18,606 bases of DNA. Source: Candidatus Brocadiaceae bacterium (GTDB lineage: Bacteria > Planctomycetota > Brocadiia > Brocadiales > Brocadiaceae). The notes beneath the pieces were generated by a model. It was not told the DNA's origin. It made no database searches and saw nothing but the letters and a program-made list of their open reading frames with translations. The DNA is taken from contig JACVXV010000058.1 of the NCBI GenBank assembly GCA_015661205.1, forward strand, positions 1 to 18,606. Direction: 5' to 3'. Within the stretch, counting starts at the first letter, position 1. Each line of letters begins with the position of its first letter. This document shows, in pieces, positions 2,287 through 18,606 of this stretch. Position numbers and translations under genes: made by a program.

Positions 2287-2318
2287 CTCTTTTGCTGAAG
2301 AACTATAGCTGCATAAAC

Positions 2319-2394
2319 GGCATAGAGGCTTTTGGCTATGTCCCGTAGGGACAGATGGAAATAGCCCACCGATTTATCGGTGGGACACTATGCC
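2319..2394. other. 76-nt multi-hairpin element (closing stem plus two internal hairpins), function unknown
   Basis: GGCATAG (2319-2325) pairs perfectly with CTATGCC (2388-2394). Inside are hairpin GTCCC-gta-GGGAC (2340-2352) and a 9-bp hairpin CCCACCGAT-tt-ATCGGTGGG (2365-2384). Confidence 0.3.
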
Positions 2395-2538
2395 AGGATT
2401 TTCAGTCGCATAGGGACGGCTGATTGCATTGACGTTTTGTTCACCTATCCGTCCGCTCTAAAAAACTTCACAGCATGCAACTTTGGCGGTCTGATCGACG
2501 AAAATAAAAAGTGCTTGATTGCTCCTTGAAGCATGGTA

Positions 2539-3225
2539 CTAACCAAGCAGTTCATGGATGTGTTTGATTGAATAGTCAGGTTTAACCTGTTTGTGCGTTT
2601 CTTTGAGATATGCTTTATAGTGTCTGCCGTATTCAAACATCACGGTAATCATGCCTAATGTTTTACCGGTCAGCAGTTCGTCGTCGCACTTATCCCCTAC
2701 GCAAACAATTTCTTCCGGCTTAAGATTATATTTTTGCATTATTTGTTTGAAACAGCTTCTTTTGGTATGGCCGAGTTCCCGGTCGGTAATCATCATTTCA
2801 TCAAAGTAGCCGCCATGTAAGCCTAATATTTCTATTTTCTGTGTCTGTATTCTGTCTTCTCCAGAAGTAACCAGGAAAAGCTTGTAGCCTTGTGATTTGA
2901 GCTTTAACAGGGTATCGGTGACGTCAGGGAAAAGCGCGATGTTGGAGATTTCTACGCGAACAAATTCTTCTAATAATTCCTTTGCGCACGTTTGAGGAAG
3001 TCCGTGAAGTAACGCCAATTTTTCATAGATGTTTGCCTTTGTTCCGTACTTTTCTTCCAACTCCTGTTGAAGGAGGTATGCCTTTTCTTCCGTGCAATTG
3101 ATTAATCCGGCAATGGTTTTTGCAACCCGTCTTCTACCGCGTACTACAAGCGTGTTGCTGCAGTCGTAGAGGGTGTCGTCCAGGTCGATGATGAATGCCT
3201 TGATTTGTTCAGATTTAGTGAGCAT
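2539..3225 (-). CDS. HAD-superfamily hydrolase (phosphatase-like)
   Basis: 228 aa. Motif I IIDLDDTLYD (DxDxT), motif II LFLVTSG, motif IV VCVGDKCDDE. ATG at 3225. Confidence 0.85.
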   Translation of the reverse strand: MLTKSEQIKAFIIDLDDTLYDCSNTLVVRGRRRVAKTIAGLINCTEEKAYLLQQELEEKYGTKANIYEKLALLHGLPQTCAKELLEEFVRVEISNIALFPDVTDTLLKLKSQGYKLFLVTSGEDRIQTQKIEILGLHGGYFDEMMITDRELGHTKRSCFKQIMQKYNLKPEEIVCVGDKCDDELLTGKTLGMITVMFEYGRHYKAYLKETHKQVKPDYSIKHIHELLG

Positions 3226-3348
3226 GTTAATGTTTGTAATGGTTTAAACAGGTATTAAACAAAGTCAGGTTGTAAGAAGGAATTAAGAATACCCATTCCT
3301 CCCGTTAAATTTAAGCCTTTTAGATAGCAAGATTACTACCGTTTCTTC

Positions 3349-3535
3349 AGCCCCGAAGGGGCGACCTGTTTGTAGCATTAAACGCAAACCGATGAATTTA
3401 GCTCCGTAGAAGCGGCCTGTTATTTATGCCAAACAGCGGACGCATAGTTTTCTAAATGCATATAACAGGCCGCTCCTACGGAGTTTTTAATGTGTTTCAA
3501 TTCCATTACTACAAACAGACCGCCCCTCCGGGGCT
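3349..3535. repeat. 187-bp nested inverted repeat built from four copies of an about 22-nt motif (two forward, two reverse)
   Basis: Outer arms 3349-3375 and 3509-3535 pair at 24/27. Inner arms 3401-3423 and 3462-3484 pair at about 21/23. The 25-nt segments between the arms are unrelated. Each outer arm carries a GCCCC-GNA-GGGGC hairpin followed by CTGTTTGT. Confidence 0.8.
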
Positions 3536-3622
3536 ATATTCATTCGTATCCGCTGGCATTCGTACCGTAATTGGCCACCATGCCGGACAAACAAGGTTTG
3601 TCAACGTTATCCCAAGAATCGC

Positions 3623-5320: not shown

Positions 5321-5336
5321 AAGGTAGTTGTGCTAT

Positions 5337-6767
5337 TTAGATGTGTAACGATTTACCAAAAGTTGCGAGAGAGGCTTCCCAAATTGCCTCAGAAAGGGTT
5401 GGATGGGGAAATATGGCGTGAGAGACGTCAGCGGCGCTTCCCTTCAGGCTAGCGGCAAGCGAAGAACCCCACATCATTTCCCCTACATTTGGGCCAATGG
5501 CATGCATTCCTAATAATTGACCGTTCTTTTCATCGGTGATAATCTTTACGAATCCGTCTTCGTACTCTCCCTGGATAATTGCTTTGCTGTTTGCAATGAA
5601 TGGGAATCTTCCCGTCTTTACCTTGTACCCGTTGTTTTCCGCTTCAACCTGGGTGAGTCCCATGCTCGCCACCTCAGGATAACAGTAGGTCACTCGTGGT
5701 ATATTGGCATAGTTGATGGGAGCAGTTTCCTTACCGGAAATAGCAGAAACAGCGCGCAAACCCTCGGCTGACGCCTTGTGGGCAAGCAGGGGGGGGCCGG
5801 CAATGTCTCCTATGGCAAAAAGGCCTTTTTGCTCCGTTTCCATTACCCCGTTTGTTTGTAAATATTTCCCCTTATATGGTAACGAAAATGCCTCTATTCC
5901 CAAGTCAGACAAGTTAGGCGTTCTGCCCAATGCGAGAAGTAACTGATCGGCTTTAAAGCAGGTATCGTTGGGATGAATAGGGGGGGGGATTGTATCTGCG
6001 TTTCTTCGTATTGATACGTTAACTCCGCTATTAATTTCAACTTTTTCCAGCGAGGCATTTGTTACAATCTCTATGCCTCTCTTTGCAAACGTTTTCTTCA
6101 GGGTCTCTCTGACTTCCTTATCTTCAGCGGGCAGGATGTCAGGTGAAAGCTCGATTATGGTTACCCGTGCGCCAAGGATGTTGTAAAGATGGGCAAATTC
6201 TACCCCCAAAGAGCCTCCGCCTGCAATGATGATTGATTTTGGAACTTCTTCGCACTTCAGGGCGTCATCACTCGTAAGTACAAACTTCCCATCATAAGGG
6301 ATTGTTTGCGGGATAGCCGGTTTTGAGCCGGTGGCAAGGATGACGTTCTTTGCCGTAATCTCCGCAACGTCGATACCCTCTTTTTTTACGATAACGTTAT
6401 TGGGAGAAGTGAGTTGCCCTTTGCCCTCAAAAACATCCACGCCATTTTTTTTGAGGAGGAATTGTATCCCCTGGAATAGCCGCCTGATAATGGCTTCTTT
6501 ACGGCGATGAAATTGAGGGTAATTAAACGCCAGTTTATCAATGACAATTCCATACTCACTTACCTTCAGTAGCTTCCGATACATGTCTGCGGAATAAAGT
6601 AACGCCTTTGTTGGAATGCACCCCTGATGTAAGCACGCGCCACCAATCTTGTTTTTTTCAACAAGCGCGGTCTTTATTCCCAACTGGGACGCCTTGATTG
6701 CCGCGACGTAACCACCCGGTCCACCGCCGATAATTAACAAATCGTAGGCAGAGTTTCTTCCGGGCAA
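5337..6767 (-). CDS. lpdA: Dihydrolipoyl (dihydrolipoamide) dehydrogenase, E3 component
   Basis: 476 aa. FAD fold DLLIIGGGPGGYVAA, redox-active disulfide GGACLHQGCIPTK, C-terminal HPHPTLSEA interface motif. TTG start at 6767, preceded by AAGGAGGAG with 5-nt spacing. Confidence 0.9.
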   Translation of the reverse strand: MPGRNSAYDLLIIGGGPGGYVAAIKASQLGIKTALVEKNKIGGACLHQGCIPTKALLYSADMYRKLLKVSEYGIVIDKLAFNYPQFHRRKEAIIRRLFQGIQFLLKKNGVDVFEGKGQLTSPNNVIVKKEGIDVAEITAKNVILATGSKPAIPQTIPYDGKFVLTSDDALKCEEVPKSIIIAGGGSLGVEFAHLYNILGARVTIIELSPDILPAEDKEVRETLKKTFAKRGIEIVTNASLEKVEINSGVNVSIRRNADTIPPPIHPNDTCFKADQLLLALGRTPNLSDLGIEAFSLPYKGKYLQTNGVMETEQKGLFAIGDIAGPPLLAHKASAEGLRAVSAISGKETAPINYANIPRVTYCYPEVASMGLTQVEAENNGYKVKTGRFPFIANSKAIIQGEYEDGFVKIITDEKNGQLLGMHAIGPNVGEMMWGSSLAASLKGSAADVSHAIFPHPTLSEAIWEASLATFGKSLHI

Positions 6768-6896
6768 TTACTCCTCCTTTTTCCAGGTAAACAGGATGAC
6801 GAAGATTAGGGCGCAGGTGGTTATCAAAATTACCTTGGGACTGATATCAGGAATAATAGACTTTTCCATAGAAAGTGATAAAAGCTTACCGATCAT
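6768..6896 (-). CDS. Small single-pass membrane protein (42 aa), not in the supplied ORF track
   Basis: My translation: MIGKLLSLSMEKSIIPDISPKVILITTCALIFVILFTWKKEE. ATG (6896-6894) is preceded by AAAGGAGGAATTTTTT. The TAA stop (6770-6768) abuts the TTG start of lpd. It has a hydrophobic helix followed by a KKEE tail. Confidence 0.5.
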   Translation of the reverse strand: MIGKLLSLSMEKSIIPDISPKVILITTCALIFVILFTWKKEE

Positions 6897-6965
6897 AAAA
6901 AATTCCTCCTTTTTAAGTTGAATGGTTATTTATTACAGCAATACAGAATAAACATCTAATTACAA

Positions 6966-7433
6966 TCACTGACATGAAACAAATGTGACAGTACCACTAC
7001 CATAGCCAGACTCGACTCCTGTATCGAATGTTTCATGGACTATTTTTTGCTCTGTTCCATTAAGTGTAGCCGCATCTAATATTACATATATGTGTCCAGT
7101 GCTCATAAAATCTACGGTATCGCCTCTAGTGGAAACGAGTGTCATCAGGATGCTATCTTTCCCCATTTCTCTATTCATTTCTGCGCTGCCCATAACCGAG
7201 GAGACACCTCCATCAGTCCTCATAAATCTGCCATTACAGAGATAATGGTTTTCCCCCATATTGGTGATTCTCAGTGTCCGCACGCCAGCTAAGGAACCAT
7301 CACCACGATATACGTTCCAGCATCTCGTTCCTTTATGGCGCGGCCATGGTACTGAGGCCCAACTACTTGCAATGAAAGATAAGCTTATTAGACAAACCAA
7401 AAAAATAAAGCTGCAAAGACGGATAATCTTCAT
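6966..7433 (-). CDS. Secreted hypothetical protein (signal peptide, beta-rich, 3 Cys)
   Basis: Start moved to the internal ATG at 7433 (MKIIRLCSFIFLVCLISLSFIASSWA/SVPW), which is preceded by AAAGGAGAGG. It has a classical n-h-c signal peptide with an SWA cleavage context. I recognise no family. Confidence 0.6.
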   Translation of the reverse strand: MKIIRLCSFIFLVCLISLSFIASSWASVPWPRHKGTRCWNVYRGDGSLAGVRTLRITNMGENHYLCNGRFMRTDGGVSSVMGSAEMNREMGKDSILMTLVSTRGDTVDFMSTGHIYVILDAATLNGTEQKIVHETFDTGVESGYGSGTVTFVSCQ

Positions 7434-7509
7434 CTGAACCTCTCCTTTCTGAAATGATTTAATCATACAGATTAGCGGTGATAAAAGAACGAAACAATTT
7501 CAGACTGTC

Positions 7510-8040
7510 TCAACATAGCTCTCGCAATTTGATAAAAACTTTATCTATCAACTCAAACTTCTCATCAAAATCATAATATCCAATATCGCTTCGACCATGA
7601 CAGTGGACAGTAACGGTTTCTGTAAAAGGATTGACGCATACCACACGCTTTACGCCTATCGACAAATAATCTTGCACCTTGTCGTTGATTTTTCTAACCG
7701 TTTCATCTTCTGAGATTATTTCAACCACCAAGTCAGGCGGTATTTCAAGCATACCCACTGGTTTTTTAGGAGATGTTTTTTTGCTTATATAAACAACGTC
7801 TGCCGCCCTTAGTCTAAATGGCTTTTTTCTTATTACAACGCCAACTTCTCCAACTGCAACATAGCCCTCTGCCCCAAGATGTTTTCTCAATATCTCATAA
7901 AAAACACCCTCAAGATTACCGTGTCTGAATCCTGCAGGAGTCATGGGTACCATCTCCTCATCGATAATTTCATAATTACCATCAGGCAAAGAATTCACGT
8001 CACTATACGTATATACCTTTTTGTCTAATAAGGCTTTCAT
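7510..8040 (-). CDS. Uma2-family (DUF820) putative restriction-endonuclease-like protein, paralog 1
   Basis: 176 aa from the ATG at 8040 (MKALLDKKVYTY...). NYEIIDEEMVPMTP...H..., RAADVVYISK and IPPDLVVEIISEDE...K..DYLSIGVKRVVCVNP fit the Uma2 PD-(D/E)xK-like layout. It is the same length as the neighbouring paralog. Confidence 0.75.
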   Translation of the reverse strand: MKALLDKKVYTYSDVNSLPDGNYEIIDEEMVPMTPAGFRHGNLEGVFYEILRKHLGAEGYVAVGEVGVVIRKKPFRLRAADVVYISKKTSPKKPVGMLEIPPDLVVEIISEDETVRKINDKVQDYLSIGVKRVVCVNPFTETVTVHCHGRSDIGYYDFDEKFELIDKVFIKLRELC

Positions 8041-8080
8041 GTTGGTAATCCCTGTTCCGGTAACAATCAATCATTCAGTT

Positions 8081-8611
8081 TCAACACAACTCTCGCAATG
8101 TAACAAAAACGTTATCAATCAACTCAAACCTTTCATCAAAGTCATAATACCCGATATCGCTTCTACCTTGACAATGAACGGTAACAGTTTCTGCAAATGG
8201 ATTGATGCATACCACTCGTTTTACGCCTATCGATAAATAGTCCTGCACCTTATTGTTGATTTTTCCAGCCGTCTCATCTTCGGATATTATTTCAACCACC
8301 AAGTCAGGTGGTATTTCAAGCATACCAACAGGTTCACGAGGAGACATCTCTTTACTTACATAGACTACGTCAGCCGCCCTTAGCCTGAAAGGCTTTTTTC
8401 GTATTACAATACCTACTTCTCCAACAGCAACGTGACCTTTCGAACTAAGGTTCTTTCCCAATATTTCTGCAATTACGTATTCAAGTTTTCCATGCCTGAA
8501 CCCTGACGGTGTCATAGCCACCATTTCCCCATCAATTACTTCATAATTACCCTCAGGTAGAGAATTCACGTCGCTATACGTATATACCTTTTTATCTAAT
8601 AAGACGTTCAT
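8081..8611 (-). CDS. Uma2-family (DUF820) putative restriction-endonuclease-like protein, paralog 2
   Basis: 176 aa, about 81 percent identical (about 33 substitutions, no indels by eye) to paralog 1. It lies 40 bp upstream of paralog 1 on the same strand. Confidence 0.75.
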   Translation of the reverse strand: MNVLLDKKVYTYSDVNSLPEGNYEVIDGEMVAMTPSGFRHGKLEYVIAEILGKNLSSKGHVAVGEVGIVIRKKPFRLRAADVVYVSKEMSPREPVGMLEIPPDLVVEIISEDETAGKINNKVQDYLSIGVKRVVCINPFAETVTVHCQGRSDIGYYDFDERFELIDNVFVTLRELC

Positions 8612-8692
8612 GCGGGTAGTTCCTGTTCATGCAGTAATAAATCGCTCCAACGGAGTTAACCATCTAAGCTTTTTAAACCGTTTAATTAGCTT

Positions 8693-10153
8693 TTAAGCGA
8701 TAGCAGCCGCCATAGCCGGCTTTTCAACAGTTACCGTGCTTGACTTATAACAGTCTTTATAGTAATCGCCCGAATCATACAACTCTTTCAAGTTCAGCAA
8801 CACCTGTTCAAAAACCTGTTTCCAGTCTGAACCTACCCTGAATGCAAACATGGAATTTCTTGGATTTTTCGTGGTATTGATAGAGTTCCTGAAGCGGGTT
8901 CTTAAGTTGTTGTTTGCGTAAATGTTGTCATAAACGTATTGCATACCCTCGATGAAATCTTCCAGTTTCATGTCCACGAAACGATGAACCACGTGTGCCG
9001 TATCGTAATATTGCCAATCATCCGGATAGTTCTTTCTGAAAATCCTCTTTTCAGAGTCCAATCTTGCGTAAAGCTGTGTTTTAGGGAAGGGGCAATTGAT
9101 ACCGAAGGTAAGGATATCAATATTGTTTTGTAGAATGAACTCCGTCATCCGCTTAAAGGAGTCCTTGCCGTCGCCGTCTGCGCCAAACACCACAGAACCC
9201 CAAACCACCAAGCCTGCGTCATGAATCTTTTGGATACAATCAAAATAACTATCCGTTCCCAACTTGAGGTTTACCCGCTTGTTCATCTTCTCCAAAACCG
9301 CTTCATTGGTAGACTCGATACCGATAAGCATGCCGAAACATCCGCTCTTTGCCATGTAATTCAACGTTTCCGCGTCCTGGGATATGTTTAAAGCAGTAAA
9401 TCCCAACCAATCCTTATGGATACCACGGTCTATCATGCCTTTGAAAAGATTACGCGCCCTTTCATTCGAATTCTTTCCATGTCCGTAAAAATTATCCTCA
9501 GCCAGCATCAAACCCTTGTAATCAGTTGCAGCCATTTCGTCAAGGACGTCCTCGAAGGGTCTCTCCCTGAATTTTCTGCCCTGGAAAGTAGGCACGCTGC
9601 AGAAGTCGCAATAGTTGGGGCATCCCTTCGTCGTTACGATGGAAGAAAACTTATAATCGTATTTCTTCTTCATAAGTTCGCGGTTTGGATACACCTTTTT
9701 CATAAGGCTAAGAGGGGGTAGGCCACCCTGATATATCTTTTTCAGTTTTCCCGCTTCAAAGTCCTTTATTACCTGTGGCCACAATTCTTCCGCTTCGCCC
9801 ACAAAAACGGCGTCGGCATAATTGGCAGCTTCTTCAGGCATAACAGAGGCGTGTATACCGCCCATAACAACGGGCATGCCTTTTTTCCTGCACGCAGCGG
9901 CTATTTTATATGCCCTTGGAGATTGGTAGGTAACAGCCGTAATGCAGACGAGGTCTACGTTCTTAAACGTAAGTTCGCCTTTATCATCAATAGCCAATTC
10001 AATATTTTCGTCTATAAGATCGAATTCCCATTCACCTGGAGTAAGAGCGGAAATATAGGCAAGGTTCAAAGGCATTTGAACGATCACCGTAATACTTTCC
10101 TCGCCATGTCTGCCAGGCATATGTGGATTAATTAACATCATTTTTCTTTTCAT
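8693..10153 (-). CDS. B12-binding-domain radical SAM enzyme (class B-like)
   Basis: CPNYCDFC (CX3CX2C) at nt 9599-9622. The N-terminal 150 aa have the Rossmann-like B12-binding-domain pattern (MLINP..., VDLVCITAVTYQSPRAYKIAAACRKKGMPVVMGGIHAS). I prefer the ATG at 10153, with GGAGGT 9 nt upstream, over the TTG at 10171. Confidence 0.85.
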   Translation of the reverse strand: MKRKMMLINPHMPGRHGEESITVIVQMPLNLAYISALTPGEWEFDLIDENIELAIDDKGELTFKNVDLVCITAVTYQSPRAYKIAAACRKKGMPVVMGGIHASVMPEEAANYADAVFVGEAEELWPQVIKDFEAGKLKKIYQGGLPPLSLMKKVYPNRELMKKKYDYKFSSIVTTKGCPNYCDFCSVPTFQGRKFRERPFEDVLDEMAATDYKGLMLAEDNFYGHGKNSNERARNLFKGMIDRGIHKDWLGFTALNISQDAETLNYMAKSGCFGMLIGIESTNEAVLEKMNKRVNLKLGTDSYFDCIQKIHDAGLVVWGSVVFGADGDGKDSFKRMTEFILQNNIDILTFGINCPFPKTQLYARLDSEKRIFRKNYPDDWQYYDTAHVVHRFVDMKLEDFIEGMQYVYDNIYANNNLRTRFRNSINTTKNPRNSMFAFRVGSDWKQVFEQVLLNLKELYDSGDYYKDCYKSSTVTVEKPAMAAAIA

Positions 10154-10161
10154 ACGATTAT

Positions 10162-11616
10162 TTACCTCCAATTCTCCATAATTAAATTAGCAACACCCCA
10201 ACCGGAAGAAACTACGGCACAAATTCCCGGGCCTGGTCTAGTCCAGTGTCCAGTCAAATACAGGTTGTCGATCGGCGTTTTTGGGGGTAATCTGTTTCCC
10301 CATATCTGATCCACCGTGACCGCCCAGCCATACGCGGCTCCATGGGTATTTGACGTATAACGCTCCAGGGTTTTCGGTGTGGCAGATTCCTTTACTTCTA
10401 TATACTTCCTTAAATCAGGAACAAAGGCCTCTAAGCGATTTACCGTGTTTTCCGTCAGGGTTTCTTTGAAAGACGGCCAATCGGTAACGTCCTGACACGA
10501 TTCCTCTTTCAAGGAAACAACTACGGAAATAATGTGCTTCTCCGAAGGCGCAAGGGTTGGGCAAATCCTTGTTGGCACGGACACATAGAGCCAATCACCA
10601 TCCGCATAACCGCTATCAGTTGACGTATGGTAAAACCCTCTCTTCAGGTTACTTAAGTCAACACCCTTGCCGACGCCCAAATACAAAAGAAAAAAAGAAC
10701 AACTTTCTTTCATTGACTTGATTTTATCGGTAAAAGGCACATCTGCTTTCCCTTTTAACAGCTCAAAAAAGGTTTGCCTTGCGTCGATATTTGAGACAAC
10801 CAAGCCTGAATGTATCTCTTTACCGTCATGTAGCTTAACGCTTTTTGCCATATTACCGTCAAAAAGTATTTCAATGGCTTTCGATGATAACATAACGTGT
10901 CCGCCGAAATCAATAAATTTCTTAAAAATCGCATTGGCAAACTCTTGCGTACCACCGGCAGGGAAAAATGCCCCGTCTTTAAGATAATTTATCATCATCT
11001 GGCACACGCCAATGGCAGAAGCCTTAGCAGGGGGGAGACCTATGTAACCGCACTGTCCGCCGAGTACCATTTTGAGTTCGTCATTGGTAAAAAAAGCGTT
11101 CAACACGTCCGCGTAGGTCTGGTCTTTATATTTGTCGATAAGCAAGCTCTTCTCATTATTGAAGGTGGCGCGGTAGAGCTTCGTAAACTCCTGGAAGAAT
11201 GCCTTGATGTTGTTTGCTTCAGCGGGATATCGCTGTTGTAATCGCGAAATGTATTCGTCCAAATATGCCGGGATTTCTATGGTGAAATAGGGGAAGATTA
11301 GGTGGTCCATAGGGTCGAGGGGATAAAATTCCATCTCAATCCCCAACGACTTCAAACACCTGCCGACGATGCCCCATTTCCCACAACCCCCGATGTGATG
11401 CACCGCCGCATCGAAGTTAAATCCCTTCCTTTTAAACGACGTGCAATAACCGCCGGGGATAAAATGTTGTTCTACAATGAGTATCTTTTTCCCGCTTTTT
11501 GCCAGAAACGCAGCACAAATAAGACCTGCGATACCGGCGCCAATAACAATCGCGTCATAACAGGGATACAGTTCACTCCTGCTTGTGGATTGTATAGCTC
11601 GTGCGGAAGGCGTCAT
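10162..11616 (-). CDS. Phytoene-desaturase (CrtI/CrtD)-family FAD-dependent oxidoreductase
   Basis: YDAIVIGAGIAGLICAAFLAKSGKKILIVEQHFIPGGYCTSF dinucleotide fold. C-terminal LYLTGHWTRPGPGICAVVSSGWGVA is typical of the family. I prefer the ATG at 11616 (4 nt after the upstream stop), because the longer listed ORF overlaps the preceding gene by about 100 nt. Confidence 0.85.
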   Translation of the reverse strand: MTPSARAIQSTSRSELYPCYDAIVIGAGIAGLICAAFLAKSGKKILIVEQHFIPGGYCTSFKRKGFNFDAAVHHIGGCGKWGIVGRCLKSLGIEMEFYPLDPMDHLIFPYFTIEIPAYLDEYISRLQQRYPAEANNIKAFFQEFTKLYRATFNNEKSLLIDKYKDQTYADVLNAFFTNDELKMVLGGQCGYIGLPPAKASAIGVCQMMINYLKDGAFFPAGGTQEFANAIFKKFIDFGGHVMLSSKAIEILFDGNMAKSVKLHDGKEIHSGLVVSNIDARQTFFELLKGKADVPFTDKIKSMKESCSFFLLYLGVGKGVDLSNLKRGFYHTSTDSGYADGDWLYVSVPTRICPTLAPSEKHIISVVVSLKEESCQDVTDWPSFKETLTENTVNRLEAFVPDLRKYIEVKESATPKTLERYTSNTHGAAYGWAVTVDQIWGNRLPPKTPIDNLYLTGHWTRPGPGICAVVSSGWGVANLIMENWR

Positions 11617-11620
11617 GAAA

Positions 11621-12862
11621 TTAAGGTTTGTATTTGGAGATGATGAGTGACGAACTATTACCGATTCGAGACGCGGTATTAATGAGGACGTTCTTAACCG
11701 GTACGGCCCTGCAGGTGTTAGGCACACAGTCTAAATCACATTCCGTGTCATGTTCCTGGTAATTGATGGTGGGGTGAACGGTGTGTGTCTTAATCGACAT
11801 TAATGAGGCTACCGTTTGCAGCGCACCCGATGCATCCAAACATTCACCGACCATGGATTTAATGGCCGGCGTAGGAATAAGGTTTGCCTTCATACCAAAG
11901 ACCTCTTTTATGGCATGTGTTTCCAATGCATCGCCGTAAACGCCTGAGTACGCGTTTGCAGAGATGCAAGAGATGTCTTGAATTGTCAATCCGGCGCTGT
12001 TAATGGCGTCCAACATAGCCTTCCTGACACCATCAGTCTGGTAATCTTTGCTGACCGCTATTTTCGGTTCAAAGGCAGTTCCATAACCCTTGACTTCGGC
12101 ATAAATATGGGCATTCCTCTTGAGGGCGTCTTCCAACGTTTCCAGGATCACCAACGCAGCCGCCTCTCCGAGAACCATCCCATTTCGCCTTTTATCGAAA
12201 GGAGCGCTTATTTCCAGTGTGCCCGACTTGCTTCCCGCCAATATTGTAGCGCTGTGAGAACCCCAGAATATGTCGTGCGTTAACCCATGCACGCCGCCTG
12301 CAACTATAGCCTTAACGCGTCCCATGCGGAGAAAGTCAGAGGCATAGATGATGGCGTCTACGCTACTCGTAACTCCGTTAGAAATGGTTGTACTAAGACC
12401 CGTTGCATTACAAAAAATGGATGCACGACTCGCTGGGGCATTTAACACGGTGTTGGGAAAATCCATCGGATTAACATAGTTAGGGCCTTCTTGCAACGAC
12501 TGGAAATCAAAGGAGCTAATACTGTCAATACTTCCATACGTCGAACCGACAACGATGCCTAATTCATCACTACTGTACGTGGTTTTCTCAATGTTTGCGT
12601 CCTTGATTGCAAGGGTTGTTGCAGATGATACAAGGAGGGAAGTCCTGTCTATATGGCGGATACCTTTCGGCCCTAAATAGACTTTAGCGTCAAAGTCAGT
12701 TATCTCTCCAGCTTGCTTGGAGTTAAACTTGCTCACGTCAAACAAGGTAATCGGTTTTATGCCCGATACCCCATTGGTCAGATTTTTCCAAAAGGTGTCT
12801 TTGTCAGACCCAAGAGGGGAGATGACTGAAACACCCGTTATAACAATTCTTGTATTTTCCAT
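11621..12862 (-). CDS. Ketosynthase paralog lacking the catalytic triad (chain-length-factor-like / KS-beta-like)
   Basis: Full KAS-II fold similarity to the adjacent FabF (IVITGVSVISPLG, PFDKRRNGMVLGE, IKSMVGE). At the positions aligned to Cys/His/His it reads Val (GTT at 12371-12373), Asn (ISANAYSG vs ISAHGTGT) and Glu (KSMVGECL vs KSMMGHTM). ATG at 12862, 17 nt after the fabF stop. Confidence 0.85.
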   Translation of the reverse strand: MENTRIVITGVSVISPLGSDKDTFWKNLTNGVSGIKPITLFDVSKFNSKQAGEITDFDAKVYLGPKGIRHIDRTSLLVSSATTLAIKDANIEKTTYSSDELGIVVGSTYGSIDSISSFDFQSLQEGPNYVNPMDFPNTVLNAPASRASIFCNATGLSTTISNGVTSSVDAIIYASDFLRMGRVKAIVAGGVHGLTHDIFWGSHSATILAGSKSGTLEISAPFDKRRNGMVLGEAAALVILETLEDALKRNAHIYAEVKGYGTAFEPKIAVSKDYQTDGVRKAMLDAINSAGLTIQDISCISANAYSGVYGDALETHAIKEVFGMKANLIPTPAIKSMVGECLDASGALQTVASLMSIKTHTVHPTINYQEHDTECDLDCVPNTCRAVPVKNVLINTASRIGNSSSLIISKYKP

Positions 12863-12879
12863 GTAAGAGTTCTCTTCTT

Positions 12880-14100
12880 TTATCCTGTAAACTTTTTTAC
12901 CACCAGACAACTATTGTTACCGCCAAACGCATGGGCATTATTAAGCGCAATGTTAACTCGTTGCTTTCTCATAACGTTTGGCACATAATCAAGGTCGCAT
13001 TCAGGGTCCGGTGTTTCATAATTAATCGTAGGTGGCATAATATCATTCTGAACAACCAAGGCGCAGGTTATCGCCTCTATTGCGCTTGCCGCCCCCATGG
13101 TATGTCCCATCATAGATTTGATAGAACTGATTGCAAGATGTGCAGGTTTTTCACCAAAAACCTTTTTGATTGATATCGTTTCTGCTTTATCGTTAGCGGG
13201 AGTACCCGTTCCATGAGCGCTAATGTACTGAACGTCTTCCGGTTTAAGGTTTGCATTTTTTAAAGCCTTTTTCATGGCAGAGACGACACCTTCACCATCC
13301 GGATGGGGGATAGTGATGTGGTATGCATCACAACTCAATCCGTAGCCGGTGATTTCTGCATAAATGTGTGCGCCTCTCTTCATTGCATGTTCAAGAGACT
13401 CTAAAAGAAGCATACCGGCGCCTTCGCCCACCATCATCCCCTTCCTGTTTTTGTCAAAAGGCTGGCAAATATCAGGGGCTATCGCGCCCAACCTGGCGAA
13501 ACCTGTATAGGCAACCTTTGAGAAGGGGTCTGAACCACCGGAAACCATCATGTCAACCCGACCAAACTTTATCAAATCGTATGCATATCCAATTGCATAA
13601 TTACCAGCAGCGCAAGCAGTTGGGATAATCGTATTGGGTCCTTTAAATCCGAATTCTATGGCAATGTTGGCCGGGATGTTGTTGCAGGGATGCATGAGAA
13701 AAAGGGCGGGATCAACCTTGTCCTCGCCTTCTTTATGGCGGACATAATTGACCTTCTCAAGGATTTGTATCTCACCGGCAGTTGTTCCGACGGAGACGCC
13801 GACCCGTTCCATGTTGTACTTACTCAGATCAATCCTGGCGTCCGTTAATGCAAGCTGGGTTGCGGCAATTGCAAACTGAGAACCTTTACCGATCTTCTTA
13901 AGAACGCCATTTTTCACGTAATCGGAATAGTTGAAGTTCTTGACCTCACAGCCTTTATGCACCTTATAGTCTGAAGTATCGATGCACGCTACTTTTTCAA
14001 CTCCCGATGTTCCTGCGATGAGGGCCTTCCAAAATGTATCCCTACCCGCGCCAATAGGAGTAATCATCCCTACACCCGTTATAACAACACGTTTATTCAT
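12880..14100 (-). CDS. fabF: 3-oxoacyl-ACP synthase II (FabF-type), catalytic triad intact
   Basis: 406 aa. [12 protein letters not shown] (Cys163), [16 protein letters not shown] (His296), [15 protein letters not shown] (His333). The ATG overlaps the fabZ stop as ATGA (14097-14100). Confidence 0.9.
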
Positions 14101-14546
14101 AATAAAGCACTTTTCTCTGCTATTCCAAAAGTTAAATTTGCCTTTGCAACTACCGTTTCACCTACCTTTGCCGTCGCCTGAACAATGGCGCCTTTCGATA
14201 CAATCTTTTCTACCAGGACTTCTATAAAGATCTGATCTCCAGGGAAAACCGGTTTGGTAAATCGCGCGCTACTTACAGAGGCCAACAAAAAAATCTTGTC
14301 CTGTTCGATAGTAGCAGTGAGGCTTTTCTTGAAAAGAATGATAGACGCCTGTGCCATCGCCTCAATAATCAAAACGCCGGGAAAGATTGCAAAATCAGGG
14401 AAATGGCCTACAAAGACAGGTTCATTCCCGGAGACGTTTTTTACACAAATAATCCTCTTGCCTTCCTCAAATTCAGTGACTTTATCGATAAACTGAAAAG
14501 GGTATTTTTGTGGCAGAAGATTTCGGATTTCTTCAAAAGATATCAT
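14097..14546 (-). CDS. fabZ: 3-hydroxyacyl-ACP dehydratase (FabZ-type hot-dog fold)
   Basis: 149 aa. [36 protein letters not shown] (catalytic His and Glu context). ATG at 14546. Confidence 0.9.
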
Positions 14547-14584
14547 TTTAGCAGGCTTCGGTATTTCGGTATTAGTGAATTGTG

Positions 14585-14854
14585 TTAAGATGAGAGTTTT
14601 CCACTTTCCGCTAAGACGGATTTGGTTAAGCCTATGGTAGCGCTTAACGACGTAATGTCTATTAGCTTTTCTTCAGGTATCTGCACTTTAAACTTTTTCT
14701 CAATGAGAGCAAGGATTTCCAGTGCCAATAGAGAATCAATCTCCAAGTCTTTAAAGAAATTAGCCTCCCGCTTGTCCCATATTTCCTTTTCGTCCAACTC
14801 TGTAACCTCAGCAACGATAGCGGTTACACCTTTTTCAATCTCTTCAGCGTTCAA
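14585..14854 (-). CDS. Acyl carrier protein
   Basis: 89 aa. FFKDLEIDSLLALEILALIEKKF carries the DSL phosphopantetheine-serine motif. TTG start at 14854 with AAGGAGGA 5 nt upstream. Confidence 0.85.
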   Translation of the reverse strand: MNAEEIEKGVTAIVAEVTELDEKEIWDKREANFFKDLEIDSLLALEILALIEKKFKVQIPEEKLIDITSLSATIGLTKSVLAESGKLSS

Positions 14855-14938
14855 ATTTGTCCTCCTTTGTATAAACCATAAATACTAAACGACATTACGA
14901 CATTGTGCCATAGTGGTAAATCAATACCAGGTAAAAAA

Positions 14939-14995
14939 TATGGTCAGCACATGCTAGCAGAGATATTTTATATTGTCAATAATATTCTGACCATA
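14939..14995 (-). promoter_or_regulatory. Putative sigma70-type promoter of the ACP operon, bracketed by a 9-bp inverted repeat (candidate operator)
   Basis: The minus strand reads TATGGTCAG-aatatta-TTGACA-(17 nt)-TAGCAT-gtg-CTGACCATA. The -35 is at 14979-14974 and the -10 at 14956-14951. The perfect half-sites are 14939-14947 and 14987-14995. Confidence 0.4.
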
Positions 14996-15108
14996 CGATA
15001 CATTTGCAACGTCTGATAATATATATTATGTTACAATTAGCGTATGTTTTCGCTAAAAACGAATCCATTTGTCATTTGCATTCCCTGTCACCCATTTTCC
15101 TCGCCCAA

Positions 15109-15732
15109 TCATTTCCCTTTCTTTGTTGTCCGTCTTTCCTCTGTCGATACCCTACGCCTCATTTTGTTCAACGTATTCAACGCCTTGTACACCTGAGACT
15201 CTAACAAAGATTCGTATGACGACAATTCGCCAGCCAGACTCTTCCCTTCCATAACCTTCAACGCCTTTAATTGTTTTAGTTCCTTGTCGGATCTTTTTCT
15301 TGTTCTGAAAAACCCCTGCTCATATTCCTGCACATCTGAGCTGCATAGTTCAATAATCTGCTTTTCAAACTTCAAGCATCGCTTCAATCTCCACGTGCTT
15401 GACGCGATTCTGTCTACAAGAATTGCCTCGACGTCATTCGTCGGTCTCAGCGCGTTCCTAAGACTTGTCCTTATTTCATCAAAGGCACAACCGTCTTCTC
15501 CGTCAATAACCACCTCGCTACTAAACAGGTTTTGCAAGGCCTTTGACTCAGTTACGATTGGCAGCGGAACTGCCTGGCTTTCCTGTTTACATTCCTGTGC
15601 AGTCTCCTTCGGCTGTTTTTCAACGGCATGATGTGGTGTTACAATGGTATCAATCAATTTGTCCACACCTTCTCTGCCTGAAGATTCCTTGTTTCCACTA
15701 CGTAGTACATTTTTTTTTAATATTGCAGCCAT
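15109..15732 (-). CDS. Hypothetical protein, charged/coiled-coil rich
   Basis: 207 aa. ATG at 15732 preceded by GAAAGGAAG. Lys/Glu-rich with predicted helical C-terminal half (LVDRIASSTWRLKRCLKFEKQIIEL...). I recognise no domain. Confidence 0.55.
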   Translation of the reverse strand: MAAILKKNVLRSGNKESSGREGVDKLIDTIVTPHHAVEKQPKETAQECKQESQAVPLPIVTESKALQNLFSSEVVIDGEDGCAFDEIRTSLRNALRPTNDVEAILVDRIASSTWRLKRCLKFEKQIIELCSSDVQEYEQGFFRTRKRSDKELKQLKALKVMEGKSLAGELSSYESLLESQVYKALNTLNKMRRRVSTEERRTTKKGK

Positions 15733-15833
15733 AATTCTTCCTTTCTAAAAGTAATGAAGAAAAGTTGCTAATTGACGAAATTTCAACGATAATATCTCAT
15801 ATTTGACGAAAGTATTCAATGGTTTTTTGATTT

Positions 15834-15970
15834 GGAACCACAGATTTCACAGATTACACAGATTGTTCTATAAGTTTGTAATTGGTTCACATAGTACCTG
15901 TTATAACGGAAACAACGCACTGATTTCCACTCCTTTTTAAGGAGGATTTCAAAAATCCCCATTAGATAAG
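15834..15970 (+). repeat. About 135-bp repeat element R1 with three terminal 9-bp iterons (NCACAGATT)
   Basis: Iterons at 15838-15846, 15847-15855 and 15856-15864. The body (about 105 nt after the iterons) aligns in reverse complement to 16980-17106 at about 83 percent identity (18 mismatches). Confidence 0.8.
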
Positions 15971-16038
15971 TAATCGAGTTGGCTGTATTATGGGCTTTTT
16001 TTAATAATAACTGGAAACTGGACACCCATGATTTTAAT

Positions 16039-16086
16039 CTGTGGTTTCAGCAGTTTTTTCCATAATAACCTGTGGTTTCAGCAGTT
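16039..16086 (+). repeat. Two exact 17-nt direct repeats CTGTGGTTTCAGCAGTT in the queE leader
   Basis: Copies at 16039-16055 and 16070-16086 (31-nt period). The second ends at the queE ATG (16087). The first is preceded by AAT, completing a reverse-oriented iteron AATCTGTGG. Confidence 0.75.
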
Positions 16087-16722
16087 ATGAAGATTACCGA
16101 AATATTTAAAAGCATCGAAGGTGAAACGTCCTACGTGGGACTCCCCTGCTCCTTTATTCGCGTAACGGGCTGCAACCTGCGCTGTAGCTATTGCGACACC
16201 ACCTACGCTTACGAAGGCGGACGCGAAATGCCGATCCCTTCAATCCTTGAGGAAGTGAGAGGATTCAAAACGAAACTGGTCTGCATCACCGGCGGGGAAC
16301 CCTTGATAAATAAGGAAACGCCGTTATTGGCCGAAGAACTGCTCAAAAAACGTTATACCGTGCTGGTAGAAACAAACGGCGCTTGTGATATCCGCGCGTT
16401 GCCAAAGGCGGCTATTAAGATTATGGATTTAAAGTGTCCCGACAGCAACGCAAGCTCCCACATGCACTGGCAAAACATCGCGTATCTGACGCCTCAAGAT
16501 GAGGTAAAATTTGTCTTGTCTTCCCGAAATGACTATGAATGGGCAAAGGTTATAATACGGCAACATCGTTTAACTGACATTGCCAGGGTGCTAATAGGAA
16601 CGGCCTCCGGCTCAATCCCGCCCAAAACCGTTGTCCAGTGGCTCCTGGAAGACAACCTCAACGTGCGGTTTCAACTCCAAATACACAAATATATATGGGA
16701 TCAGCAGGCCAGGGGCGTTTGA
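16087..16722 (+). CDS. queE: 7-carboxy-7-deazaguanine synthase (radical SAM QueE)
   Basis: MKITEIFKSIEGETSYVGLPCSFIRVTGCNLRCSYCDTTYAY is the QueE N-terminal signature with the CX3CX2C cluster. I prefer the ATG at 16087 over the GTG at 16072. Confidence 0.9.
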   Translation: MKITEIFKSIEGETSYVGLPCSFIRVTGCNLRCSYCDTTYAYEGGREMPIPSILEEVRGFKTKLVCITGGEPLINKETPLLAEELLKKRYTVLVETNGACDIRALPKAAIKIMDLKCPDSNASSHMHWQNIAYLTPQDEVKFVLSSRNDYEWAKVIIRQHRLTDIARVLIGTASGSIPPKTVVQWLLEDNLNVRFQLQIHKYIWDQQARGV

Positions 16723-16778
16723 ATTGTCACACAGTAACGTTGCAAGGTAAAGCCACGGTTCGACGAAAGAACTTAAAA

Positions 16779-16805
16779 CCACAGATTACACAGATTTCAC
16801 AGATT
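16779..16805 (+). repeat. Solo array of three 9-bp iterons (CCACAGATT ACACAGATT TCACAGATT)
   Basis: Exact tandem 9-mers with the same unit and orientation as the R1 terminus, 57 nt downstream of the queE stop. Confidence 0.8.
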
Positions 16806-16824
16806 AAAAGCATGGAAGTTCAGT

Positions 16825-16931
16825 TATACTACGGACGGGCATAATTTAAACTTTTGAAAGTGTCGCAAATGCCAGATAACCATTGAACATGGCGGAACTT
16901 CGGTCTTTTGTAATGTTCAGTTTATGCCCGT
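16825..16931. repeat. Inverted repeat: 20-nt arms with a 67-nt spacer
   Basis: TATACTACGGACGGGCATAA (16825-16844) pairs with TTATGCCCGTTGGCAGTATA (16912-16931): 17 Watson-Crick pairs plus 1 G-T out of 20. Both arms are preceded by GTTCAGT. Confidence 0.6.
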
Positions 16932-16979
16932 TGGCAGTATAGTGTTAATAAAATCCATTGATACAGTCAATTTGATTAT

Positions 16980-17106
16980 TTATCTAATGAGGAACTCTGA
17001 AATCCTCATTAAAAAGAAGTGAAAATTAGTGCGTTGTATCTATCATAACAGGTACTATGTGAACCAATTGTAATTATTAGAACAATCTGTGTAATCTGTG
17101 GTTTCA
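16980..17106 (-). repeat. About 127-bp repeat element R2 (inverted copy of R1) with two terminal 9-bp iterons
   Basis: Its reverse complement aligns to R1. Iterons AATCTGTGT (17084-17092) and AATCTGTGG (17093-17101). It ends 27 nt upstream of the queC ATG. Confidence 0.8.
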
Positions 17107-17132
17107 AAGCTTTTTATCGTGATAGGTCATCA

Positions 17133-17804
17133 ATGAATGAACTTGCCATTATATTAGTCAGCGGCGGCATGGATAGTTGTGTGACTGCCGCCCTTGCAAG
17201 CGAGCGTTATCAGCCCGCGCTCCTGCACGTCAATTACGGCCAGCGCACGGAATCAAGAGAACTTAAGGCGTTCCGGGACATTGCCGCATATTATCACATA
17301 CCCGAAGACAGATTACTCATATCAAACATCGACCACCTCAGCAAAATTGGTGGTTCGAGTTTAACGGACGCCAGGATAGACGTCCAGCACGCACAACCAT
17401 CCAGTACAGAAATCCCAACCACGTATGTGCCATTCAGAAACACCCTTCTCTTAACCATTGCCGTTTCCTGGGGCGAGGTTATCGGGGCGTGCAAGGTATT
17501 TATCGGCGCAGTTGAGCAAGATAGCCCCGGTTATCCCGACTGCAAACCCGCTTATTATGAGGTATTCAACAGACTCATTAAGGCCGGCACAAAACCGGAC
17601 ACCTGCATTGAGGTGGAAACACCCCTTATTGATAAGTCAAAGACCGAGATCGTAAAACTGGGCATTGCGCTAAAAGCCCCCCTTCATCTGAGCTGGTCTT
17701 GTTACAAAAATTCCGACAAAGCCTGCGGCTTCTGCCAAAGCTGTTTCTTACGGTTAAAGGCCTTTCAGGAGGCCGGTGTGAAGGATCCTGTGATATACGA
17801 GTAG
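17133..17804 (+). CDS. queC: 7-cyano-7-deazaguanine synthase (QueC)
   Basis: 223 aa. PP-loop ILVSGGMDSC, LHVNYGQR, and a C-terminal zinc-binding Cys cluster (SWSCY...CGFCQSC). Confidence 0.9.
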   Translation: MNELAIILVSGGMDSCVTAALASERYQPALLHVNYGQRTESRELKAFRDIAAYYHIPEDRLLISNIDHLSKIGGSSLTDARIDVQHAQPSSTEIPTTYVPFRNTLLLTIAVSWGEVIGACKVFIGAVEQDSPGYPDCKPAYYEVFNRLIKAGTKPDTCIEVETPLIDKSKTEIVKLGIALKAPLHLSWSCYKNSDKACGFCQSCFLRLKAFQEAGVKDPVIYE

Positions 17805-17871
17805 CACAGACTTTCAGCCTGCCGACGCCCTTCATTGAAACAAATGCATTGGATGTGAAAGAATCCCTATC

Positions 17872-18606
17872 ATGAACGACACCGACGTCCTCTTAGAATT
17901 CCTGAAAATGCCTCTTGGAAATTCTGACGAAGTATTCAAAAAATTCACCACCCTCCCTGGCGCAATCCACCGGGGAATCGCGCTTGAACAGTTTCTTTTC
18001 GTTAAAGGCAAAAGAGGCGATAAGGTGCTACTCGTGGCGCACGCCGACACCCATTGGGATAATCGCAACAGGGGCAACGGCCACATACCACAGGAAATTG
18101 TGCAAGAACAGGGCATCATCAAAAACGCGCATGGCGGGCTTGGGGCTGATGACAGGGCTGGTTGTGCAATACTGTGGATGCTCAAGGATATGGGACACTC
18201 CCTCCTCATAACTGACGGTGAAGAACGCGGCGGACGGGGAAGCGACTGGTTAATGAATGAAAACCAGGACATTGCCGACGAAATCAACGACAACCATCAA
18301 TTTGTTATCCAGTTCGACAGGAGAAACAGCAAAGACTTTAAGTGCTATTCCGTTGGTACAGACGAGTTCCGGGCGTACGTTCAACAAGCCACCGGCTACT
18401 CCGAACCCAACCGTTCTGCCTTCACGGACATTGTCACCCTTTGCCGCAGGATTGCCGGCGTCAACCTAAGCATCGGTTATCGAAACGAACACACGGATGA
18501 CGAACATCTGGTCTTGCAGGACTGGCAGCACACCCTTGACGTCTGCCGCACATGGCTTTCCCGTGCCGAATTGCCACGGTTTGATCTCTTACAAAATAAT
18601 AGGTAA
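17872..18606 (+). CDS. M28/M20-like zinc metallohydrolase (peptidase-like), compact form
   Basis: 244 aa. The metal-ligand-like motif series is VLLVAHADTH, GLGADDRAGCAILWML, ITDGEERGGRGS and GYRNEHTDDEH. The TAA stop is at the window end. Family assignment is from motif order only. Confidence 0.5.
   Translation: MNDTDVLLEFLKMPLGNSDEVFKKFTTLPGAIHRGIALEQFLFVKGKRGDKVLLVAHADTHWDNRNRGNGHIPQEIVQEQGIIKNAHGGLGADDRAGCAILWMLKDMGHSLLITDGEERGGRGSDWLMNENQDIADEINDNHQFVIQFDRRNSKDFKCYSVGTDEFRAYVQQATGYSEPNRSAFTDIVTLCRRIAGVNLSIGYRNEHTDDEHLVLQDWQHTLDVCRTWLSRAELPRFDLLQNNR

Follow-up and report, generated by a model that had tools for sequence, protein, structure and literature searches.

Introduction

What is made by a bacterial operon that combines a dedicated acyl carrier protein (ACP), a dehydratase, two ketosynthases (KS), a flavoenzyme and a cobalamin-binding radical S-adenosylmethionine (SAM) enzyme, and is its product a ladderane lipid? 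The operon in question lies in an 18,606-nucleotide stretch of DNA from a Candidatus Brocadiaceae bacterium (NCBI GenBank assembly GCA_015661205.1, contig JACVXV010000058.1, positions 1 to 18,606 of the forward strand), the whole of which is referred to here as the window. As judged by sequence comparison it is a further copy of a cluster known from anammox bacteria, and colinear copies of the same cluster occur outside the Brocadiales.

We know of no enzyme that has been shown to build fused cyclobutanes, and ladderane biosynthesis is a long-standing problem. To our knowledge, no genetic system exists for anammox bacteria, and the radical SAM enzyme has proved recalcitrant to expression. An earlier interpretation, made from the letters of the window (the sequence-only reading), had stated that this gene content was once proposed as a route to ladderanes and that heterologous expression failed to produce them. 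Both statements are accurate (Rattray 2009, PMC2649909; Javidpour 2016, PMC4790861).

Results and discussion

Identity of the operon

In the open reading frame (ORF) read-out of the window six co-directional genes, all on the minus strand, occupy exactly positions 8693-14854. From 5' to 3' on that strand they are as follows.

14585..14854, minus strand: ACP (amxACP ortholog), 89 aa, TTG start, Ser41 in a DSL motif
14097..14546, minus strand: 3-hydroxyacyl-ACP dehydratase FabZ (amxFabZ ortholog), 149 aa, FabA/FabZ domain, His48/Glu62
12880..14100, minus strand: active beta-ketoacyl-ACP synthase (amxFabF2 ortholog), 406 aa, Cys163/His296/His333
11621..12862, minus strand: triad-less KS homolog (amxFabFmut ortholog, resembling a chain-length factor, CLF), 413 aa, Val164/Asn303/Glu340
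10162..11616, minus strand: phytoene-desaturase-like flavin adenine dinucleotide (FAD) enzyme (kuste3607 ortholog), 484 aa, GAGIAG dinucleotide-binding motif from residue 26
8693..10153, minus strand: cobalamin-binding radical SAM enzyme (kuste3608 ortholog), 486 aa, C178-x3-C182-x2-C185

A profile search against Pfam and NCBIfam confirmed the domain calls that the sequence-only reading had made for all six genes, and each of the tight junctions it described is present in the sequence. The FabZ stop and KS start overlap in ATGA at 14100-14097, the active KS is separated from the second KS by 17 nt (12879-12863) and the second KS from the flavoenzyme by 4 nt (11620-11617), while GGAGG at 10169-10165 abuts the flavoenzyme TAA (10164-10162) and lies 11 nt ahead of the radical SAM ATG at 10153. 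The domain search found no ketoreductase, enoyl reductase or acyltransferase among the window ORFs scanned, as had also been claimed.

On sequence grounds the operon is the ortholog of Kuenenia stuttgartiensis kuste3603-3608, which papers on ladderanes call 'Cluster I' and which was described by Rattray 2009 (PMC2649909). The assignment follows from close matches to PDB entries 7AUF, 8AYD and 9S5H/9S5I together with the 84% identity of the radical SAM protein to its K. stuttgartiensis counterpart; the four window proteins with close solved relatives (7AUF, 8AYD and chains B and C of 9S5H) match them with E values of 1e-45 to 1e-250. The window proteins are 70-94% identical to those of the Brocadia and Kuenenia clusters compared and 57-82% identical to those of the Scalindua clusters compared, the ACP reaching 90-94% against the Brocadia and Kuenenia loci (L015, L027 and L033), and in neighbour-joining trees the cluster groups inside the Brocadiaceae. 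The ACP, FabZ, KS, radical SAM and neighbouring Lpd proteins are identical to GenBank entries within MBF8276461-71, which come from a 'Candidatus Brocadiaceae bacterium' metagenome-assembled genome. Among these the ACP is MBF8276471, named 'acpP 2', and the radical SAM protein, 486 aa when translated from the ATG at 10153, is identical to MBF8276466. No hzs or hdh genes occur in the window.

The feature is thus already known, being another copy of a cluster under study. Kuenenia Cluster I (L027) agrees with the window operon in all six genes and in their order, with proteins 70-91% identical to those of the window, and shares the Val/Asn/Glu of the triad-less KS, the FabZ Ile69 and the host family, Brocadiaceae. 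The window differs in having two Uma2 genes after the radical SAM gene and, upstream, a 207-aa ORF restricted to Brocadia and Jettenia; these differences are lineage-level and none is functional. We put the probability of the overall explanation, a copy of Cluster I that encodes an ACP-dedicated module resembling a type II fatty-acid synthase (FAS) or polyketide synthase (PKS) plus two tailoring enzymes, at about 0.8.

The acyl carrier protein, dehydratase and ketosynthases

The ACP carries a PF00550 (PP-binding) domain (51 bits) and matches PDB entry 7AUF, described as 'similar to acyl carrier protein', with E=2.7e-45. The dehydratase, closest to 8AYD (E=1.7e-69), passes the NF000582 model with 149.1 bits against a cut-off of 113 and lies slightly under that of TIGR01750 (148.6 against 155.15). 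Alignment, and comparison with Dietl 2023, places Ile69 where canonical FabZ has Gly and also reveals a hydrophobic Ile115, which together form the signature of this FabZ. The characterized amxFabZ likewise carries Ile69 in place of Gly; it dehydrates (3R)-3-hydroxyacyl chains on amxACP but not on canonical ACP, and its turnover of C6 is more than ten times that of C8, with C10 and C12 barely converted (Dietl 2023, PMC10139942).

Both KS proteins contain the N- and C-terminal ketoacyl-synt domains. The active KS matches chain B of 9S5H (E=9e-250) and the second KS chain C (E=1e-223). Of the two FabF models the active KS passes NF005589 (457.8 against 387) and falls under TIGR03150 (476.9 against 493.75), while the second KS is under both (304 and 314, respectively). 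Catalytic positions were set by alignment to E. coli FabF, and the contrast of Cys163/His296/His333 with Val164/Asn303/Glu340 upholds the earlier description of one active and one triad-less KS. The Val/Asn/Glu substitutions are those listed for Kuste3606 (Rattray 2009, Table 2).

In a preprint of May 2026 (Granatino et al., bioRxiv 10.64898/2026.05.19.726425) amxFabF2 and amxFabFmut were each found to be inactive alone and to associate as a KS/CLF-like heterodimer (PDB 9S5H/9S5I), which decarboxylates malonyl-amxACP, forms acetoacetyl-amxACP and in crosslinking favours C6/C8 over C16. In structure, according to the same work, amxFabF2 most closely resembles the KS of the ishigamide highly reducing type II PKS, and the corresponding entry 6KXD is a strong sequence match to the active KS of the window. 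Heterodimerization is known from the close B. fulgida and Kuenenia orthologs; what the window itself displays is the adjacency of the two KS genes and the lost triad. The sequence-only reading had deduced a KS/CLF-like pair, and the experimental heterodimer of close orthologs (9S5H/9S5I) bears this out; the deduction was right, though already published.

The flavoenzyme and the cobalamin-binding radical SAM enzyme

The flavoenzyme contains PF13450 (NAD_binding_8) and PF01593 (Amino_oxidase) domains. Its nearest solved structure, CrtI (4DGK, E=2.8e-27), is not a close one. The protein scores 168.5 with TIGR02734 (crtI_fam) against a cut-off of 238.1, and 176 with a carotenoid isomerase model against 587. 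Membership of the CrtI family was rejected on the TIGR02734 score, and the profile matches assign the protein only to the broader amine-oxidase/FAD superfamily (PF01593, PF13450). Of the earlier assignment to the phytoene-desaturase family, the FAD and amine-oxidase domains therefore stand, whereas the crtI_fam score is below the cut-off.

The last protein of the operon has an N-terminal B12-binding domain (PF02310, 43.3 against 32.1) followed by a radical SAM domain (PF04055, 51.3 against 29.5), and Cys178, Cys182 and Cys185 are invariant in the alignment of its orthologs. The two domains and the CX3CX2C motif place it among the class B, or cobalamin-binding, radical SAM enzymes. Our search found no close solved structure for it. 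The best NCBIfam match is TIGR04072, rSAM_ladder_B12 ('lipid biosynthesis B12-binding/radical SAM protein'); at 94.2 against a cut-off of 360, membership was rejected, and the protein is to be placed in another radical SAM family. The order of the B12-binding and radical SAM domains is shared with BchE, OxsB and HpnJ, enzymes that carry out ring formation or rearrangement, although against BchE/HpnJ-type models the window protein scores 70-84 bits where the cut-offs are 480-580.

Methylases make up the majority of characterized cobalamin radical SAM enzymes, and anammox bacteria contain 10-methylhexadecanoic and related acids. In this view the enzyme would be a C-methyltransferase of the ordinary class B type and the operon a source of methyl-branched fatty acids, a proposal with which weak matches to the PhpK, HpnR and tryptophan methyltransferase families of NCBIfam and the database name of the K. 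stuttgartiensis ortholog, 'bacteriochlorophyllide d C-12(1)-methyltransferase', are consistent. All of these family matches, however, are far under their cut-offs, the best-scoring matches include the non-methylating HpnJ, BchE and AprD4, and a dedicated ACP, a KS/CLF pair and a short-chain dehydratase would be needless for methylating a finished chain. We consider a methyltransferase very unlikely.

Solitary paralogs of the radical SAM gene were also noted. In deep-branching Brocadiales metagenome-assembled genomes (MAGs; L073-L080) a second copy, 57-60% identical to the window protein, has no fatty-acid genes within 10 kb, and Anammoxibacter OFTM134 (listed with L060) has the full cluster plus a solitary copy of 74% identity.

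A proposed pathway

Close orthologs provide the model for the first steps, in which the heterodimer of active and triad-less KS would prime and condense on amxACP. A ketoreductase would be borrowed in trans, and amxFabZ would dehydrate amxACP-borne (3R)-3-hydroxyacyl chains of C8 or shorter, so that the cycle of KS, ketoreductase and dehydratase may lead to enoyl-, dienoyl- or trienoyl-ACP of C8 or less. Because the module has no dedicated enoyl reductase, such short enoyl- and polyenoyl-amxACP species (C8 or shorter) could be expected to accumulate. The CrtI-like flavoenzyme might adjust the unsaturation of these intermediates, and the B12 radical SAM enzyme might perform C-C chemistry initiated by H-abstraction, either ring closure or coupling, in the manner of the non-methylating cobalamin enzymes. 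In synthetic chemistry, [2+2] dimerization of paired dienes and trienes gives [3]- and [5]-ladderanes. By this analogy unsaturated C6-C8 units would be of an attractive size for ladderanes, which we offer as a lead and not as a test.

The sequence-only reading had favoured a different mechanism, in which a long ACP-bound polyene is formed, the desaturase extends its conjugation and the radical SAM enzyme triggers a ladder-forming cyclization cascade. The gene logic, a KS/CLF pair, dehydratase and ACP with no enoyl reductase, fits this idea, as does the structural proximity of amxFabF2 to the ishigamide polyene KS, and polycyclization of a polyunsaturated intermediate is still one of three proposals in a recent review (PMC13459092). 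For long chains the idea is nevertheless disfavoured. The activity of amxFabZ collapses past C8 and the heterodimer prefers C6/C8 to C16; neither anammox bacteria nor E. coli expressing the cluster have ever been found to contain polyunsaturated fatty acids; the pattern of isotope labelling does not match polyene cyclization (Dietl 2023, PMC10139942); and the operon encodes no ketoreductase. A long polyene as the substrate of cyclization appears to us quite unlikely.

The ishigamide (Iga) and aryl-polyene (Ape) clusters share with the window a discrete ACP, a KS with a triad-less, CLF-like partner, a hot-dog dehydratase and the lack of an enoyl reductase, and the ishigamide ketosynthase (6KXD/6KXE) is a top match by both sequence and structure. 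A highly reducing type II PKS nevertheless combines a ketoreductase and a dehydratase, has no enoyl reductase and makes a polyene, and the window is without a ketoreductase; several of the orthologous clusters outside anammox bacteria, described below, do adjoin one of the short-chain dehydrogenase/reductase (SDR) type. The dehydratase is of the FabZ type and not an ApeI/ApeP-type pair. Polyene PKS clusters normally lack a CrtI-like flavoenzyme and a B12 radical SAM enzyme, and no polyene product is known for the cluster studied here.

Distribution of the cluster

An alignment of radical SAM orthologs was used to scan one genome per GTDB species, and all six window proteins were run by tblastn against 84 loci. 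The colinear six-gene set recurs in 58 of the 84 related loci fetched, 49 of them Brocadiales or anammox-like and nine others (eight distinct), so the arrangement is not due to chance. FabZ and the active KS do score near canonical FabZ and FabF models, as six unrelated housekeeping fatty-acid genes adjacent by chance, or a redundant copy of the canonical FAS, might lead one to expect. Conservation and the biochemistry of the orthologs have effectively refuted both suggestions: the order is kept in the 58 loci over several phyla, the genes are translationally coupled, the second KS has no catalytic triad, amxFabZ refuses canonical ACP (PMC10139942) and the canonical FAS, kustd1386-1391, sits elsewhere in the genome (PMC4790861).

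The Brocadiales carriers include Brocadia, Jettenia, Kuenenia, Loosdrechtia, Scalindua, Anammoxibacter, Subterrananammoxibius and deeper lineages, and the 49 Brocadiales or anammox-like loci have a GC content of 36-51%. Gene order is identical across all 49 complete Brocadiales loci, whereas the flanks vary, even within the Brocadiaceae. The eight distinct loci outside the Brocadiales lie on contigs DASRDY010000236, DAIQJH010000003, CAVTHF010000011, CAWFFN010000005, CAWESA010000024, CAZYOL010000003, SHNF01000009 and QQUA01000023. With their sources given as labelled, the remaining colinear six-gene loci are these.

L070: Blastocatellia MAG, GC 50%
L001/L002: Acidobacteria MAG, GC 60%
L081: Acidobacteriota MAG, GC 58%
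L071 and L072: two 'delta proteobacterium' MAGs, GC 69%, on contigs of 1.8 Mb and 0.38 Mb
L082: 'Spirochaetales' MAG, GC 69%
L003: Planctomycetota MAG, GC 57%
L084: Planctomycetota MAG, GC 70%

All of the non-Brocadiales loci and the matches listed in both radical SAM searches come from MAGs or metagenome contigs, and neither these matches nor the 80 genome loci retained include an isolate or a cultured carrier. The Blastocatellia locus is nearest to the window (ACP 72%, FabZ 55%, KS 67%, second KS 49%, flavoenzyme 46% and radical SAM 62% identity). By alignment, the non-Brocadiales clusters have a Cys-His-His KS beside a triad-less KS, and FabZ position 69 is Ile or Leu in seven of the eight distinct loci. 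Their ACPs are amxACP-like and, when compared with E. coli ACP, carry the same insertion of two residues; start/stop overlaps are present at their gene junctions too. In published work these features count as anammox-specific. For L004 and L069 the residue call for the triad-less KS had picked the active KS and was disregarded.

Concatenation of the six proteins (1996 columns) gave a neighbour-joining tree in which the Brocadiales were monophyletic in 200 of 200 bootstraps, with the other clusters outside and that of Blastocatellia nearest. Since they branch outside, these clusters are not recent exports from crown anammox bacteria. A misbinned anammox contig was considered for the Blastocatellia locus and rejected because the named best matches of the seryl-tRNA synthetase encoded beside the cluster are all from Blastocatellia. 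For the other loci misbinning is unlikely, given their GC contents of 57-70%, their location mostly within contigs of 0.38-1.8 Mb and their branching outside the Brocadiales.

Several of these clusters have a richer setting. An SDR ketoreductase and FabH adjoin the cluster of L001, and L003 and L082 have an extra B12 radical SAM gene and a second pair of active and triad-less KS, to which L003 adds a ketoreductase. In L071 (positions 1-20150, CAWFFN010000005.1) genes for a KS, a 3-hydroxyacyl-CoA dehydrogenase, an enoyl-CoA hydratase, a further KS and a TetR protein precede the six-gene core, which is followed by two B12 radical SAM genes, a pair of active and triad-less KS, an enoyl-CoA hydratase, an SDR ketoreductase and a fourth B12 radical SAM gene. 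In layout this looks like a fusion of Cluster I with a kuste2802-2805-like set, and it suggests that the two anammox clusters work together.

On the Blastocatellia contig (L069/L070, DASRDY010000236.1), about 18 kb from the cluster, lies a second set consisting of a KS, a triad-less KS and two radical SAM genes (48% and 62%). In gene content it resembles kuste2802-2805, so that counterparts of both anammox candidate gene sets appear to be present in one non-anammox genome. A shorter group in a 72% GC metagenome contig (L004, 7676-11431) contains a KS, a truncated triad-less KS and a B12 radical SAM gene (55%), with no ACP, dehydratase or flavoenzyme.

In papers from the Barends group the cluster is said to be 'encountered exclusively' in, or 'unique' to, ladderane producers. 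The eight distinct colinear loci in non-Brocadiales MAGs do not conform to such exclusivity, and they are the new element of this analysis. Looser synteny in Desulfotalea, Geobacter and Pelobacter had already been noted (Rattray 2009, PMC2649909), and antiSMASH 'ladderane' clusters have been reported across many phyla in metagenomic surveys; in the part of the literature that was searched we found no description of exact colinear six-gene orthologs outside anammox bacteria.

Relation to ladderane biosynthesis

The sequence-only reading had proposed that finding the operon in organisms that make no ladderanes would refute a role in their synthesis. The operon has indeed been found outside the Brocadiales. 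This weakens the link without refuting it, since the carriers concerned may themselves make related molecules. That the anammox product is a ladderane acyl chain, or part of one, seems to us somewhat favoured. Our confidence has been lowered to this level, and the link is kept because every anammox lineage sampled retains the operon intact and the operon is highly expressed (PMC4790861).

Several considerations weigh against it. The cluster is not confined to anammox bacteria. The roles of its flavoenzyme and radical SAM enzyme are predictions from sequence families, and among characterized cobalamin radical SAM enzymes, as mentioned, methylases predominate. In anaerobic E. coli kuste3603-3608 were expressed and could be detected, but neither ladderanes nor polyunsaturated fatty acids were formed (PMC4790861). 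In vitro the heterodimer failed to elongate hexanoyl-ACP (bioRxiv 10.64898/2026.05.19.726425). Syntenic clusters are present in Desulfotalea psychrophila, which makes no ladderanes (PMC2649909), and, as a 2026 review that sets out three competing proposals makes clear, no experiment ties any cluster gene to ladderanes (PMC13459092).

These points give substance to an alternative in which the cluster is not ladderane-specific and makes some other acyl unit or lipid common to several phyla, the ladder being built by other anammox genes. Such a product could be a short chain that is unsaturated, cyclized or branched or, as has been suggested for Desulfotalea, a precursor of polyunsaturated hydrocarbons. 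Colinear orthologs in Blastocatellia, other Acidobacteriota, 'delta proteobacterium', 'Spirochaetales' and high-GC Planctomycetota, all with the triad-less KS and amxACP-like ACP and most with FabZ Ile/Leu69, speak for it, as do their position outside a monophyletic Brocadiales (200 of 200 neighbour-joining bootstraps) and the authenticity of the Blastocatellia contig, supported by the seryl-tRNA synthetase matches. The heterologous expression that gave no ladderanes (PMC4790861) and the polyunsaturated hydrocarbons of the ladderane-free D. psychrophila with its syntenic clusters (PMC2649909) argue in the same sense. On the other hand, the cluster is intact and colinear in every anammox lineage sampled and is highly expressed in anammox bacteria (PMC4790861), the non-anammox carriers may make related molecules, and no alternative ladderane gene set is better supported. 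We regard a non-specific product as possible but, on balance, unlikely.

A bolder view of the same loci is that the orthologous cluster functions as a lipid pathway in bacteria outside the anammox group, that these bacteria themselves make ladderane-like lipids, cyclobutane-containing or otherwise radical-cyclized, and that the anammox ancestor acquired the pathway from elsewhere. The lineages behind it are Blastocatellia, other Acidobacteriota, Myxococcota-like 'delta proteobacteria' and high-GC Planctomycetota. We find this doubtful; were it true, anammox bacteria would not be alone in making ladderanes or very close chemical relatives of them.

The window alone, as one more copy of a studied cluster, adds nothing to the ladderane problem. 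The wider family, however, reaches at least four other labelled lineages, contrary to the description 'unique to ladderane-producing bacteria', and co-occurrence is therefore lost as an argument for the ladderane link. The high-GC and more self-contained versions, with a ketoreductase in cis and extra radical SAM genes, could ease expression and reconstitution, and the non-anammox carriers could serve for a lipidomic test of whether the product of the cluster is a ladderane. As there is no cultured carrier among the matches listed or the loci fetched, the practical value lies in alternative gene sets and targeted lipidomics.

Comparison with other carrier-protein systems

Like the KS-alpha/KS-beta pair of actinorhodin biosynthesis, the characterized orthologs of the two window ketosynthases form a heterodimer of an active and a triad-less KS that is primed by decarboxylation of malonyl-ACP. 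A classical CLF has Gln in place of the active-site Cys, whereas the second KS of the window has Val164; it differs in this from an actinorhodin-type CLF. The products here would be reduced and dehydrated, not poly-beta-keto aromatic.

The cispentacin system AmcB-AmcH likewise builds a small carbocycle on a dedicated ACP with a KS/CLF-like pair and a FabZ-like enzyme (AmcE, a cyclizing decarboxylase). The NCBIfam models for AmcF (KS, 245 bits), AmcE (109 bits) and AmcB (ACP) match window proteins, with scores that are all under the family cut-offs (325, 140 and 80, respectively). None of the other Amc enzymes has a counterpart in the window, and cispentacin biosynthesis has no radical SAM enzyme or flavoenzyme of the kind found here.

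The clusters of Desulfotalea psychrophila, Geobacter and Pelobacter also combine FAS genes with genes for radical SAM and amine-oxidase-family ('phytoene dehydrogenase') proteins (PMC2649909). They are more distant, and are likened to the window by their published description and not by six-gene order.

Expression signals and flanking genes

Two candidate signals precede the ACP gene.

14951..14979, minus strand: sigma-70-like promoter candidate (TTGACA, 17 nt, TG-TAGCAT), about 97 nt upstream of the ACP start
14861..14867, minus strand: ribosome-binding site AAGGAGG, read from the sequence, 6 nt ahead of the ACP start codon TTG

The putative promoter is the top-scoring site of the region, with ten of the 12 consensus positions matched, and is proposed on this consensus match alone; the total of sigma-70-like sites is not above the shuffled expectation. 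No convincing intrinsic terminator was found on the minus strand after the radical SAM gene. Rfam gave no riboswitch or other RNA within or upstream of the operon, a permissive RNA scan of 14800-15150 returned a chance-level match only, and no tRNAs were found in the window.

Directly after the radical SAM stop are two tandem genes for Uma2-family (PF05685) putative endonucleases (7510-8611, minus strand), 81% identical to one another. They were found only in the three closest relatives (L005, L006 and L008), for which reason they were rejected as members of the operon; a recent insertion followed by duplication would seem to account for them. In L070, too, a distant Uma2 gene (26% identical) follows the radical SAM gene at about 1 kb, probably by coincidence. 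The 207-aa ORF that precedes the ACP gene (15109-15732, minus strand) matches no Pfam family. It keeps its position, with 42-90% identity, in 23 Brocadia/Jettenia-like loci and is absent from the Kuenenia, Scalindua and non-anammox loci; conserved in so limited a group, it was rejected as a seventh gene of the cluster.

Divergent QueE and QueC genes (16072-17804, plus strand) lie further upstream of the operon, and Lpd, a glycogen-phosphorylase-like gene and a HAD hydrolase gene lie downstream (2539-6767, minus strand). This wider Que/Lpd synteny block is common only to the Brocadiaceae, which leaves the six genes as the conserved unit.

An ORF at 83-1321 (minus strand), with an uncertain start, has an unusual architecture of WD40 repeats, a Roc/Ras-like GTPase and the beginning of a calcineurin-like phosphoesterase. 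A HigB-like toxin gene (1826-2215) and a helix-turn-helix antitoxin gene (1524-1829) overlap by 4 nt on the minus strand (1524-2215); no homolog of the pair was found in any related locus. Between the HigB toxin and HAD hydrolase genes, the Acido-Lenti-1 small RNA (RF01687; 2339-2384, minus strand), at 40.4 bits against a gathering threshold of 37, is the sole match in the window at Rfam gathering thresholds.

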